Counted from the first letter of the stretch, positions 55,401-64,000 are shown. The stretch: 64,000 bases of DNA from Anaerolineales bacterium (GCA_020845955.1 JADLEU010000364.1:11958-75957), one strand, 5' to 3'. The notes: generated by a model not told the origin, from the letters alone. Numbers and translations are program-made.

Positions 55401-56451
55401 TGTCGGTGTTCGGCAGCACCCGGCCCAGCGACTGGGCGGCACTGTTCAACGCCTCGCCCAGGCTGGCGGCGCTGGCCGCGGCGCGGGTGACGTCATACAG
55501 CAGCGTCTGCTTGATGACGTAATCACGCGTTTCGCTGAAGAGGCGCGCATTCTCAAGCGCGAGGGCCAACTGGTCGCTGACCGCCTGCACCAGGGCCAGG
55601 TCGTCCTCTGACCACGCGCGCGCCTGGCCTTCATCGAAGAAATCAAGTACGCCAATCGTTTGGTTTTGAAGCTGGATAGGCACCGCCAGCGCCCGCGGCC
55701 CGCTGCTGGCCAGAGTTGGACCGGCGGCTCGCAGGACAACGGCGCCCTGGGCCAGCGCCTGCTCCGCCTCGGGGCTCAGGGCATCTTCGAGCGGCGCAAG
55801 GCCCTCGGCGCCTGCCACGAACCCCCAGGGCGCCCCGAGACGGCCACGTTCGCCAGCAGCCGGCAAATCGGCGGCCAACGGGGCTGGCGGCGCAGCGGCC
55901 GCGGGCCAATGCGATTCGGCCGGAGTGGGCAGGCTGGGCGGCAGGTTCACCGCCGCAATCTCCGGCACGGCGGGCGAACCGGGCGGCGCCTGGTCCGGCG
56001 TCCACAGCAACTGGGCGATGCCGCGGTACCCGGCAAACTGGTCCGCGTTGTCGTATTTGGGCAGGGCGTTAAGCACCAGCAGCAGGTCGCGGCCGTCGCG
56101 ATGACGCGCGGTCAGGCGCACATCGAGGATGGGACGCCGTCCGCTGATGGCGTTGGTCAATTCGTGCCGCGCGCTGCTGTCGGCCGGCGCCGCCATCTGG
56201 GTGAGTGGCTGCCCAATCAGGCTGTCGGGCGCGATCCCCAGAAGCGCCACGATCTCCGGCGAGCAAGCCGTGTAGGCGCCAAGCGCGTCGATCTCCCAGC
56301 TCCAGCCGGGCGTGACGCCGAGCGGGTCGGCTGACAGCGGCGTTTGATCCGCCGCGCCCTGGGGGGGCGCAGCCGAGGGCGGGGCTGGGCGCCCATCGCC
56401 GGCGGCCGGCCAGGCCTCAGGCCGGCTGGGCGGAAGGTTCTCGGCGGACAT
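52447..56451 (-). CDS. Cytoplasmic hybrid sensor histidine kinase: PAS, mini-GAF, 3xGAF, HisKA, HATPase, 2xREC
   Basis: FLANMSHELRTPLN (His at 53941-43), NLLSNAAKFT, DTGPGI, GGTGLGL; two DD...D.LMP receivers; no TM segment. Confidence 0.95.
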   Translation of the reverse strand: MSAENLPPSRPEAWPAAGDGRPAPPSAAPPQGAADQTPLSADPLGVTPGWSWEIDALGAYTACSPEIVALLGIAPDSLIGQPLTQMAAPADSSARHELTNAISGRRPILDVRLTARHRDGRDLLLVLNALPKYDNADQFAGYRGIAQLLWTPDQAPPGSPAVPEIAAVNLPPSLPTPAESHWPAAAAPPAPLAADLPAAGERGRLGAPWGFVAGAEGLAPLEDALSPEAEQALAQGAVVLRAAGPTLASSGPRALAVPIQLQNQTIGVLDFFDEGQARAWSEDDLALVQAVSDQLALALENARLFSETRDYVIKQTLLYDVTRAAASAASLGEALNSAAQSLGRVLPNTDIAILLLDEAGRTLRIRAAVGYAADLGGRLSIPRGQGITGWVAEHNQAVLCADVRQDPRYVAGRAGILSEASVPLALGERVIGVLNIESAEPAAFDQQDLQLLSTLAGTLSAIIVNNHLLEQIGRERERLGVLYDVLQALIARPEREAVLQTALAMAPRLGAQHAYVLLLGERDAQAIFRGTLPGLDQLDERAANAFALTIARRGLERWVLENRRPVVVADTAHDERWHTADSHVEHEPARAVISVPLRTQRGTLTGVLAYTHGLPGALGEEHLPLIESLAGQVAVALENDALRQQQRAQREGAEALARAAQAMTRTLIEADLCQIVVEQLFETYRPNGVCLLRWEAPSQTFLPVAAEKAPSDAEGDPQPWPVVGERFAAARRPDLLEIVRTRHGRIRPLREEPGAQLRESMCLPLVYGGEVEGVVEVIHTGPRRGLGPGDLELFHAILTAAASALQSARLYELQRQTAERLAEVDRLKSQFLANMSHELRTPLNSIIGFSRVILKGIDGPLTDLQAQDLSSINNAGQHLLGLINDILDMARIEAGKMELVLDEVDLHDTLKGVLATTLALVKDKPIRLVEEVAPAVPRVRADSMRIRQVLLNLLSNAAKFTDEGTITLRARPVEAVGPYTGQIEPFVEISVIDTGPGIAPEDMGKLFEQFSQVDASATRKVGGTGLGLSICRQLVELHSGRIWAESEVGRGSTFTFILPVSQPESQGTAPVAELPDPGARLVLAVDDDQGIHNLYRRYLEPHGYKVVGVSKSTEAITRAAELRPVAVLLDVLMPNKDGWQVLADLKRSPVTSDIPVIMCTLVADQQRAQQMGAADYLTKPILEADLVRALTRLPPPLPVPGPASPAKRDVLVIDDRPEDIAYIRRALDPGGAGQAFRVLEARGGQAGLAAARQSRPHAIILDLLMPDMDGFAVLSALRGDPATRDIPVIVVSGAELSRPDRDRLTQHVSALRSKGLLKPEQLLTDLQRALGAGR

Positions 56452-57199
56452 ACACGCTCAATTCATCAGCCAGCGCGCGGTATTGCTGCGCCGCGCGGCT
56501 GCTGGGCGCATAGCTCGTGATCGGCTGGCCAAAGACCTGGCTTTCGCGGAGCTTGGGGTCAATGTCGATGGTGGTATCCAGGACGGCTGCCCCAAAGGCG
56601 CCGCGCAACTGGTCGAGGATGCCGCGATGGACGCGGTTGCCGCGGTCGAACATGGTGACGACGATGCGGTAGCTGAGCTGCGGGTTCGTTCGGGCCCGCA
56701 CGCGGCGGACCAGGTCCAGCACTTCGCCCAGGCCATGGGTTGAGAAATACTCGCATTGGGTGGGGATGAGGAGCATGTTGGCCGCCGTCAGGGCTGTATA
56801 GGGGATAGCGCCGGTCGACGGTGGGCAATCGACGAGCACGATTTCAAAGGTGTGGGCGGCGGCCAGGGCGCTGCGCAGCGTATACTCGTAATCCTGGCGC
56901 ACGGTCAAGAAGCGCTCCACTAGGTGCATAGCAGAGTTGGCCGGCAGCACATCGAGGCCGGCGATGGCGGTGGCGCGGCTGACGCTGACGGCACTGAGGT
57001 TGCCCAGGAGCACGTCGGCGGCGCCACGGCGCAGGCCGTTGACCGGCAGGCCGAGGGCGAGGCTGAGGTTGGCCTGCGGGTCCAGGTCCACGGCTAGCAC
57101 CTCGAAGCCGCGCTCGACCATGGCCGCCCCCAACGACACGCAAGTCGTGGTCTTGGCCACGCCCCCCTTCTGGTTGCTGACGGCGATCACGGTCCTCAC
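56417..57199 (-). CDS. ParA/MinD family ATPase
   Basis: NQKGGVAKTTT deviant Walker A, DLDPQAN, VDCPP, IPTQCE; overlaps both neighbours. Confidence 0.92.
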   Translation of the reverse strand: MRTVIAVSNQKGGVAKTTTCVSLGAAMVERGFEVLAVDLDPQANLSLALGLPVNGLRRGAADVLLGNLSAVSVSRATAIAGLDVLPANSAMHLVERFLTVRQDYEYTLRSALAAAHTFEIVLVDCPPSTGAIPYTALTAANMLLIPTQCEYFSTHGLGEVLDLVRRVRARTNPQLSYRIVVTMFDRGNRVHRGILDQLRGAFGAAVLDTTIDIDPKLRESQVFGQPITSYAPSSRAAQQYRALADELSVYVRREPSAQPA

Positions 57200-62388: not shown

Positions 62389-64000
62389 CGGCCGGCCTCC
62401 GGCTGGCCGGGCGCGTCCGCGCCGGCCAGCCGCACCACGACTTCGGTGGCGCCCAGCGCGCGGCCCAACTCACGCATGCCGCTCTGGACCACCGCGGAAG
62501 GATTGAGCGTGGCGCGCAGCTGGTAAGTGATGTCGTTGATGAGCTGTTCGCTCAGCCGGCGGCGCTGAGTTTCTTCGAGCAGGGCGGCGTTCTCCAGGGC
62601 GGCGGCGAGCTGGGCCGAAATCGTGCCGAGGGCCGCCTGCTCTTCCGCCGTCCACTCGTTGGGGCGCCGCCCATGCAGTTCGATAGCCCCGACGACTCGG
62701 TCGCGCAGCCGCAGCTCGATCTGGAGCGGCTCGGCGCTGGCGCTGCTCAGGGTCGCGTCGCCGGGAACCGCTTCGAACACGCTCTCCCGGCTTTGGCCGC
62801 GCAGCAGGCCGCGCCAGCTGTTGCCGGCCAGGCGCTGGTAGAGACGGCTCACTTCGTCCAGGCTCGCCTGGGTCTGCTGGAACAGCTCGGCATTTTCGAT
62901 GGCGACGCTGAGTTGGTCGGCCAGTGTCTGCAGGACCTGAATGCTGCTAGGGTCAAAGGCGTTGGGTTCGCGACTCTGCACGTCGACGGCGCCGAGCAGC
63001 CGGTCACCGGAAATCAGCGGGATGGCCAGCTCGGAGCGCGTCTCGGGCAGGAGCGGGTTCTTGAAGTAGAACGGGTCCTCGGCGACGTCGAGCGCGACGC
63101 GCGGCTGGCGCTGGCTGGTGACCCAGCCAATCAGAGACTGCGAGCCCACCGCCAGGCGGTGGGCGCGCGCCTTGAGCTGCGCGCCCACCGGGCCGGTGGA
63201 TTCGCGCAGCACCGCGTACTGCCCGGGCGCATCCAGCAGGAAGATCGAGGCGTGGTAGAAGCCGAAGCGGTCGCGGATCAGGTTCAGCGCCAGCCGCAGC
63301 AGGTCATCCAGGTTGCGCAGCGAGGCGGTCGCCCGGCTGATGTCGGCCGCGGCCTGGAGTTGGGCGGTGCGGTCGCTGACGCGCTGTTCGAGCGAGGTGA
63401 CGAGCTCGTTGAGGCGGGCGGTCATGCCATTGAAGGCTTGGGCCAGCAGGCCGATCTCGTCGCGGCTGTCGACCTCGGCCTGCACGGTCAGGTCGCCGCC
63501 AGCGACCTGACCGGCGGTGGCGGTCAGGCGCCCAATGGGGTCGGCCAGGACCTGTGCGGCAGCCACCGCCACGGCGGTGACGATCAGGGCAATGATGGCT
63601 GCCAGGGTGACGGTGGCCTGGGTCTGCTGCTGGACGGGCGCCAGGAATACGGCCGTAGGCTGAAAAAAGGCCACCTGCCAGGGAAAGCTGGCCAGGGTGA
63701 TGACGGCCGCCTGGCTCTGGCGGCCGCCGGCCGCCGCGTCGACGGCGGTGAAAAAGGGCTGGGCGCCGGCCTGGGACAGGCTGCCGGCCAGCTGCGGCAT
63801 CTGAGCTGAATAGGCGAAATCAGGCCGGCTAGGCAGCCGAGACTGGGCCTGGAGGCGGCTGATTTCGCCCGCCGTGGCCGGTCCGACTAGCCGATAGAGC
63901 GCGGTTGGATCGGCGCCGTGCGCCACAACCATCAGGTTCTCGTCAAAGACGGCGCCAAACGAATCCGGCCCGGCCAGCCCCTGGGTCTGTTCGACGATGC
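62385..64000 (-). CDS. Membrane sensor (extracellular/Cache-like, TM, HAMP, GAF, mini-GAF), 5'-truncated by the window; no output domain
   Basis: Frame is open from 63998; TM, then PIGRL..DEIGLLAQAFNGM HAMP; RFGFYH GAF; same C-terminal fragment as the downstream gene. Confidence 0.88.
   Translation of the reverse strand, partial: IVEQTQGLAGPDSFGAVFDENLMVVAHGADPTALYRLVGPATAGEISRLQAQSRLPSRPDFAYSAQMPQLAGSLSQAGAQPFFTAVDAAAGGRQSQAAVITLASFPWQVAFFQPTAVFLAPVQQQTQATVTLAAIIALIVTAVAVAAAQVLADPIGRLTATAGQVAGGDLTVQAEVDSRDEIGLLAQAFNGMTARLNELVTSLEQRVSDRTAQLQAAADISRATASLRNLDDLLRLALNLIRDRFGFYHASIFLLDAPGQYAVLRESTGPVGAQLKARAHRLAVGSQSLIGWVTSQRQPRVALDVAEDPFYFKNPLLPETRSELAIPLISGDRLLGAVDVQSREPNAFDPSSIQVLQTLADQLSVAIENAELFQQTQASLDEVSRLYQRLAGNSWRGLLRGQSRESVFEAVPGDATLSSASAEPLQIELRLRDRVVGAIELHGRRPNEWTAEEQAALGTISAQLAAALENAALLEETQRRRLSEQLINDITYQLRATLNPSAVVQSGMRELGRALGATEVVVRLAGADAPGQPEAGR

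Follow-up and report, generated by a model that had tools for sequence, protein, structure and literature searches.

Kinase-less receptors and a histidine kinase of Anaerolineales appear to carry complementary pieces of one GAF domain

How could a receptor that has no kinase of its own be coupled to one? This question is raised by a gene cluster at the end of a 64,000-nucleotide stretch of DNA from Anaerolineales bacterium (GCA_020845955.1 JADLEU010000364.1:11958-75957), analysed here as a whole and called the window. The cluster is a single co-directional one, with all genes on the minus strand. It encodes a receptor with a HAMP domain (P0003, the HAMP receptor), a large receptor (P0002), a ParA/MinD-like ATPase and a hybrid histidine kinase (P0001), while a third receptor is found just upstream of the HAMP receptor gene, beyond the window. 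In the kinase, Pfam recognizes HisKA (residues 828-895), HATPase_c (942-1061) and two receivers, so that it is a sensor histidine kinase. In P0002, P0003 and the third receptor, Pfam finds no HisKA, no HATPase and no other output domain, and none of them qualifies as one. The cluster is thus a two-component system with kinase-less accessory receptors. All three receptors end in the same segment of about 50 amino acids (the tail), and the kinase has no such tail; no membrane segment was noted in the kinase, although no search aimed at one was made. A second peculiar element, a shortened GAF with a conserved tryptophan (the W-mini), is found in both receptors of the window and in the kinase.

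What is the tail? Its profile was aligned with hhalign to a GAF profile of 181 columns, made from 59 full GAF units of this genome. It matched columns 5-66 with a probability of 98%, that is, the linker helix, alpha1, alpha2 and beta1. Solved structures were matched in the corresponding region (8w26_A 8-54, 6oap_A 137-182, 2lb5_A 8-54, and also 6bhn_A; E-values from 1e-11 to 3e-6), and the tail shares with these GAF N-termini the pattern RExLIxxIxxxIRxSLdxxxIL...ElrxxLxxdRv. The first three of these structures are histidine-kinase entries, and we take all four to be GAFs of the phytochrome/cyanobacteriochrome class. Judging from the sequence, the tail is a homologue of the GAF alpha1-alpha2-beta1 region; its assignment to the phytochrome/cyanobacteriochrome class is only presumed. 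The tail is also distinctive, since ordinary GAF N-termini score just 10-20 bits with the tail model. Neither Pfam nor NCBIfam holds a model for the tail or for the W-mini. Partial NCBIfam matches to the MadS kinase, spanning a GAF end and the tail, made us consider a degenerate DHp or a truncated kinase; this candidate was rejected, as a conserved His is missing from the tail and its sequence matches the N-terminus of a GAF rather than HisKA. In the solved GAFs, 8w26_A among them, the chain continues from the helix-helix-strand unit into the remainder of the GAF, whereas after the tail there are 10-70 low-complexity residues and then a stop codon. In the HAMP receptor these residues number 13; in the large receptor they form an extension of 53 amino acids rich in Gly, Pro, Ala and Asn. 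This extension (window positions 57199-57357) includes a basic patch, QRRRGTGGLRP, and in P0008, an orthologue of the HAMP receptor, a similar one, RRGTSGLRP, comes after the tail. The idea that the patch is a peptide contacting or activating the ParA-like protein found no support, the extensions across loci being otherwise unrelated low-complexity sequences (Gly/Asn/Pro-rich).

The W-mini is the opposite case. Its profile aligned to columns 121-181 of the same GAF profile (probability 98.8%), that is, to the last two strands and alpha5, and its match to solved GAFs was limited to the last ~57 residues. Upstream of this C-terminal part, the W-mini has an N-terminal part of its own, composed of a conserved helix ending in an invariant Trp and a following G[YF]x[YF]D hairpin. 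Pfam GAF models covered the W-minis at positions ~77-133 only, as compared to 1-133 for the full GAFs of the same proteins. The C-terminal GAF helices are spaced by 101 and 109 amino acids at the minis versus 155-199 at all other tandem pairs in the genome. Of the W-minis, that of the HAMP receptor, which lacks alpha2 and beta1, is reduced furthest; for the one of the large receptor, the alignment to the GAF profile is confined to the C-terminal part. The kinase W-mini lacks alpha1, alpha2 and beta1, and its C-terminal part is nearly invariant (conservation 0.83) among the ~30 kinase orthologues that were found. Such an absence is also evident from an AlphaFold2 model of kinase residues 190-475, built with 21 sequences (predicted local distance difference test score, pLDDT, 83.6; predicted template modelling score, pTM, 0.70), with contacts in this and the other models judged from DSSP, pLDDT and Foldseek. 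Herein, the W-mini is composed of strand, strand, helix, three strands and alpha5, with no N-terminal helix, while the adjacent full GAF additionally has alpha2 (142-156), beta1 (160-167) and beta2 (173-180). Thus, the W-mini lacks what the tail contains. Together with the first full GAF, it superposes on the tandem GAF-A/B of PDE5A and PDE2A (TM-score 0.61-0.63). Overall, the two structural observations of a preliminary description of this DNA were confirmed, with all five features at the positions given there: both receptors of the window end in the same alpha1-alpha2-beta1 fragment, and three proteins contain a short GAF that lacks its N-terminal part and retains a Trp/aromatic motif.

The two pieces can also be found joined in one chain. 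The strongest internal matches to the tail profile (50-67 bits) are followed by sequence of W-mini type in the same protein (P0098 569-739, P0105, P0128, P0212, P0218 and P0171), and other internal tails are followed, after a short linker, by the last two strands and the helix (P0144, P0138, P0108). When a profile was made from 17 such fused units, its alignment with the full GAF profile was global, extending over columns 6-181 with a probability of 99.8%, and Pfam GAF_3 spans a fused unit end to end, covering 1-128/129 in P0108. Neither the tail nor the W-mini alone covers a complete GAF (PF01590 / PF13185 / PF13492), while the two together make up a single GAF domain. The global alignment and the GAF_3 coverage therefore indicate that the tail and the W-mini constitute one GAF of a distinct subfamily. 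On the strength of these alignments, we conclude that they are complementary pieces of one GAF, belonging to a Chloroflexota subfamily and cut in the loop after beta1. Hereafter, we refer to the tail as the putative donor and to the W-mini as the putative acceptor piece.

Could such pieces be evolutionary leftovers, that is, tandem GAF boundaries out of register, tolerated and idle, or else truncated kinases and assembly errors? Recombination can indeed cut tandem repeats out of register, and frameshifts abound in L002, a related assembly. However, the tail is the best-conserved segment of the HAMP-receptor orthologues: its mean column conservation is 0.87, as compared to 0.72 for the C-terminal and 0.61 for the W part of the W-mini. 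About 45 of these orthologues, from independent Anaerolineales and Promineifilaceae assemblies, share the same tail at the end, followed by 10-30 low-complexity residues. When 1.84 billion cluster representatives were searched with the tail profile, 11,657 proteins passed a limit of E <= 1e-3, and 4,794 passed the stricter one of E <= 1e-10; these totals include multi-GAF proteins with no terminal tail, since whole-protein scores sum several stretches and ordinary GAF N-termini add up. Among the 150 best-scoring proteins, 84 have the tail (44-99 bits) within ~120 residues of the C-terminus, mostly 10-80. Furthermore, both receptor genes of the window end in a GTGA overlap of the stop codon with the next start codon (62385-62388 and 57196-57199), and the tail shows neither a His-containing DHp motif nor an alignment to HisKA. 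Such evidence already contradicts the idea of leftovers, to which we give hardly any credence, and it does away with the reservation of the preliminary description that the tails might be frameshift-truncated kinases peculiar to this assembly.

If the pieces do belong together, their numbers should be informative. The genome under study encodes ~109 GAF-like units in 43 open reading frames (ORFs), and a single operon accounts for all of its three tails (47-89 bits) as well as all of its three W-minis. For the minis alone, the chance of such a coincidence is C(14,3)/C(109,3) = 0.002. We then considered 17 genomes, counting with profiles of the W-mini and of its C-terminal part, plus inspection. 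Terminal tails and W-minis were equal in number in 13 of them: 3:3 in the genome under study, and 3:3, 3:3, 3:3, 5:5, 6:6, 7:7, 7:7, 14:14, 5:5, 5:5, 2:2 and 0:0 in the others, although one 5:5 pair might have been counted twice, as genomes G004 and G016 are possibly one assembly. The 0:0 genome (G015) serves as a control, since it yielded 105-158 candidate matches to both profiles at first look. Across the 17 genomes, the two counts per genome correlate with r = 0.99. The non-trivial part of this correlation is the match between tail-only proteins and surplus W-minis, which held in 12 of 12 curated clusters despite differing layouts; the surplus W-minis usually sit in the kinase.

The layouts are best given in a short notation, with T for the terminal tail, m for the W-mini, G for a full GAF and HK for the kinase core. 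In the window operon, receptors (G T)(G m T)(G m G.. T) accompany a kinase (m G G G HK). The HAMP and large receptors have one piece of each kind; the unmatched pair is the third receptor, with a tail only, and the kinase, whose W-mini is the only acceptor-only piece of the genome. Other balanced layouts are (G T)(G m G T)(G G m G T) with (m HK), (G T)(G T) with (G m m G G HK), (G5 T) with (G m T)(G m T)(G m G G HK), and (G T)(G T)(G m m G T) with (G m G G HK). In one locus (L014), there were apparently three tails for four W-minis; an additional upstream tail was predicted and then found by a genome search, on a receptor lacking a W-mini. Overall, the fused full-GAF chains, the co-occurrence of the two pieces in equal numbers and the balancing of tail-only receptors by extra kinase minis lend strong, if indirect, support to the preliminary suggestion that tails and minis are matching halves.

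These observations induce us to speculate on completion in trans, a scenario we find somewhat more probable than its opposite: the tail of one molecule would complete the W-mini of another and thus link kinase-less receptors to the kinase. The donor piece, composed of alpha1, alpha2 and beta1 as the central strand, would be offered by sensors devoid of an enzymatic output, at their very C-terminus, and the acceptor piece (from the next strand through the C-terminal helix) by the W-minis inside receptors and the histidine kinase. With its strand and both helices inserted into a W-mini on a second molecule, the tail would rebuild a whole GAF, the strand sitting between beta2 and the last strand of the sheet. 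Receptors would thereby be tied to each other and to the kinase on a common helical spine, and along this spine a receptor that lacks a kinase would pass on its ligand state mechanically, first to its partner and finally to the kinase. From there, phosphate would go to the receivers of the cluster, the likely acceptors, including an enzyme-fused one. The ParA-like ATPase probably places or partitions the assembly. In this scenario, we infer the physical pairing of the pieces, its geometry in trans and the direction of signal flow.

Why in trans, if most receptors carry both pieces? The preliminary description had also proposed completion in cis for the HAMP receptor, by circular permutation. 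On such a view, the tail folds back on the W-mini of the same chain to give a circularly permuted GAF, and only proteins with a single piece would need a partner. The W-mini and the tail are indeed adjacent in several unrelated families (P0048, P0051, P0061) and many receptors, and a fold closed in cis would remove the difficulty of membrane receptors standing at the same height. However, the model of the HAMP receptor speaks otherwise. AlphaFold2 was run on its last 166 residues with 36 sequences (pLDDT 71, pTM 0.52); the beta-hairpin and alpha5 are confident, and the W part stays below a pLDDT of 50. A continuous helix of 46 residues (80-125, pLDDT 85-91) runs from alpha5 of the mini into alpha1 of the tail and is followed by a second helix, 129-143, corresponding to tail alpha2, while the tail beta1 is left with no strand pairing. 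The best Foldseek matches were phytochrome GAF-to-PHY spines, where the second piece is already part of the domain that follows. The continuous helix, the unpaired strand and these matches thus place the tail as the opening segment of a further domain, which is absent. In GAF domains, as reasoned from tandem-GAF and phytochrome architecture rather than computed, alpha1 and alpha5 lie side by side and point in the same direction; a linker-free join from helix to helix could not produce such an arrangement. Additionally, the two pieces of the large receptor are 1100 residues apart. We therefore consider completion in cis, suggested earlier for the HAMP receptor, to be very unlikely.

The same models provide arguments for another alternative, which seems to us rather unlikely yet has to be taken seriously. 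The tail might be an autonomous C-terminal helical hairpin that closes a dimeric coiled coil, and the W-mini a self-sufficient reduced GAF. The partner of the tail may then be something else, for example the ParA-like ATPase, the single-domain receivers or the DHp of the kinase. Equal counts would derive from an inherited GAF-W-mini-tail cassette and co-inherited operon members, not from fold completion. AlphaFold gives a confident helix-turn-helix at the end of the spine with no partner needed, and the W-mini folds alone with moderate confidence. The tail occupies the position that DHp helices have in related proteins, and most receptors bear both pieces, which explains much of the correlation. 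A two-helix output module with no kinase activity is, moreover, known from RpBphP1 (PMC6899989). What such an autonomous hairpin leaves unexplained is the 1:1 correspondence between tail-only receptors and surplus W-minis, located in kinases and double-mini receptors, in all 12 of the curated clusters, as well as the discovery of the missing tail that had been predicted in L014. It also does not account for a near-invariant beta1 strand (xVVVRL) that stays unpaired in the monomer model, nor for the same tail subtype being fused to W-mini sequence in intact domains.

Several points have to be set against completion in trans itself. In G-m-T cassettes, a rigid helix holds the tail lower than the W-mini by one domain, and receptors anchored at equal membrane height would be unable to pair with each other unless there were a hinge or a staggering; in genome G002, nine receptors of this type follow one another. 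The kinase W-mini was modelled at a pLDDT of 65-85 in the absence of any tail and may, on the evidence of that model, be stable on its own; minis that fold independently, together with tails that do not bind, were what the preliminary description had named as a refutation. As for the counts, the raw correlation is largely trivial, many receptors bearing both pieces. Four genomes miss equality by one (1:2, 1:0, 3:2-3 and 5:4-5), these being fragmented assemblies or counts close to a score threshold. A strict balance per operon fails in G002, where one cluster (L023) has two tails for five W-minis and two others have 10:9 and 2:0, and the balance, 14:14, is genome-wide only. Finally, the counts depend on hidden Markov model (HMM) thresholds, on hand curation, on incomplete metagenome-assembled genomes and on related operons that are not independent.

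It is tempting to extend completion in trans one step further. Receptors carrying both pieces might chain head-to-tail, with tail-only receptors at the start and W-mini kinases at the end of the chain, and differences between paralogous tails might set which socket each of them enters. We put forward such chaining tentatively, as a possibility that may well prove wrong. If true, it would represent a modular, genetically countable wiring code, and Anaerolineae would possess ParA-positioned receptor-kinase arrays with up to dozens of kinase-less sensors.

The features discussed so far are collected in Table 1 together with their genes.

Table 1. Genes and domain pieces of the cluster, in window coordinates
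Feature	Window position	Strand	Protein residues	Basis or content
Tail of HAMP receptor	62427..62576	-	P0003 475-524	tail HMM 89 bits
Tail of large receptor	57358..57504	-	P0002 1629-1677	tail HMM 58.6 bits; 90.5 bits with profile A2
W-mini of HAMP receptor	62568..62834	-	P0003 389-477	101-aa period; W-mini HMM 114-125 bits
W-mini of large receptor	60853..61131	-	P0002 420-512	109-aa period; profile match 1-124/124, 73.8 bits
W-mini of kinase	55528..55842	-	P0001 ~204-308	GAF profile match columns 120-172 only
HAMP receptor gene, 3' part	62385..64000 (start past window end)	-		ORF/translation; Pfam HAMP and GAF
Large receptor gene	57196..62388	-	1730 aa	MASE11 membrane domain, GAF, W-mini, 4 GAF, 2 PAS, GAF, tail
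ParA/MinD-like ATPase gene	56417..57199	-	260 aa	Pfam AAA_31 3.6e-43, CbiA, ParA
Hybrid histidine kinase gene	52447..56451	-	1334 aa	PAS, Pro/Ala-rich linker, W-mini, 3 GAF, HisKA, HATPase_c, 2 REC
Threonine-synthase-like PLP enzyme and receiver fusion gene	50727..52436	-		ORF; next gene downstream of kinase

When the contig is read beyond the window, the complete HAMP receptor is 912 amino acids long, with the architecture TM-dCache-TM-HAMP-GAF-W-mini-tail (TM, transmembrane segment) common to its ~45 orthologues. The third receptor has 658 amino acids and the architecture dCache-HAMP-GAF-tail. It lies on contig C364 at 77238-82400 (L092 1336-6492, minus strand) together with two single-domain receivers (156 and 125 amino acids) and a Ser/Thr protein kinase of 718 amino acids, and this order of third receptor, receivers and Ser/Thr kinase recurs in L001 and L002. 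At the other side of the cluster, the fusion of PALP with Response_reg holds the same position in L001 and L002, being a conserved member. The ParA-like gene overlaps its neighbours on either side; its product has the deviant Walker A motif SNQKGGVAKTT and a family-wide profile match, which make it a ParA/MinD P-loop ATPase, and among its neighbours in the cluster none was seen to be parB-like. In the large receptor, residues ~178-250 (window 61640-61860) include a stretch of ~65 residues, apparently a continuous Ala/Arg/Glu-rich helix leading from MASE11 to the first GAF. In the HAMP receptor and the third receptor, the HAMP plus linker is far shorter than this stretch, which may determine how far from the membrane the W-mini stands.

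With the ParA-like protein as an anchor, we gathered about 20 orthologous loci from Anaerolineales. The order of tail receptors, ParA-like gene and W-mini kinase is kept in these ~20 loci, and several of the kinases consist of PAS, W-mini and kinase core only. Kinases encoded after the ParA-like gene in L009 (10734-12332), L025 (479-3265) and L023 (7445-9505) start with a short conserved motif, RLxxRLExLF / RLDKLFS, which also starts the kinases in L024 (4415-6499), L008 (10734-13079) and L021 (3244-6531); the window kinase does not have it. In L002 (ENA contig_69177), the ParA/kinase region is split into many short ORFs, most likely by sequencing frameshifts, and domain counts there are unreliable. 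An extreme form of the same system is found on contig C7 of G002 (33000-68428; L088, L089), where nine paralogous G-m-T receptors and one G-G-T receptor stand in a row, followed by the ParA-like gene and a kinase of 2874 amino acids with 14 full GAFs and no W-mini.

Anaerolineae are rich in multi-GAF sensors that have no kinase. If true, a naturally split sensory domain, made whole again by the meeting of two proteins, would represent a new way of coupling receptors to histidine kinases, with neither a fused kinase nor a CheW-type adaptor. The wiring of an array could then be read from the genome sequence by counting and matching pieces, and the pieces themselves might serve as a compact natural part for synthetic receptor-kinase connections. 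In a full-text literature search for split, partial and truncated GAFs, we found no natural split GAF described. What is new here is the W-mini as the complementary piece, the intact fused form and the 1:1 rule.

How does the system compare with known ones? Tandem GAFs (PDE2A, PDE5A, PDE6 and cyanobacterial CyaB2) and the GAF-PHY spines of phytochromes are alike in that their units are strung on a continuous alpha5-alpha1 helix, and the model of the HAMP receptor mini plus tail superposes on the GAF-PHY spine of Cph2. In those proteins, however, every unit is complete, whereas here one unit lacks alpha2 and beta1, and the array ends in an additional alpha1-alpha2-beta1 with nothing after it. 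As a small non-enzymatic sensor output, the closest analogue is the HOS domain of RpBphP1, which is a small helical output of a sensor with no kinase and contacts a separate partner (PMC6899989). HOS is derived from a DHp-like hairpin and binds a repressor, while the tail is derived from a GAF and keeps a beta strand.

The cluster also resembles chemoreceptor arrays in having kinase-less receptors, one kinase and a ParA-like gene. In arrays of chemoreceptors, CheW and CheA, many kinase-less receptors feed one kinase, and some arrays are placed by ParA-like ATPases (ParC, PpfA). However, no Pfam match to an MCP signalling domain, CheW or CheA was found in any protein of the cluster, which is therefore not a chemosensory array. 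Chemoreceptor arrays couple through an adaptor, whereas here the coupling would proceed by domain completion.

The closest mechanistic analogue known to us is the donor-strand complementation of chaperone-usher pili, in which a fold short of one strand is completed by a strand of the next subunit. Each pilus subunit has one donor and one acceptor, and the ends of the chain are acceptor-only or donor-only, which leads to 1:1 bookkeeping. The likeness to the system described here rests on the 1:1 counts, the pairing of tail and W-mini being putative. Chaperone-usher pili are built on an Ig-like fold and form an extracellular structural polymer, whereas the tail would contribute two helices and a strand, inside the cell and in the service of signalling.

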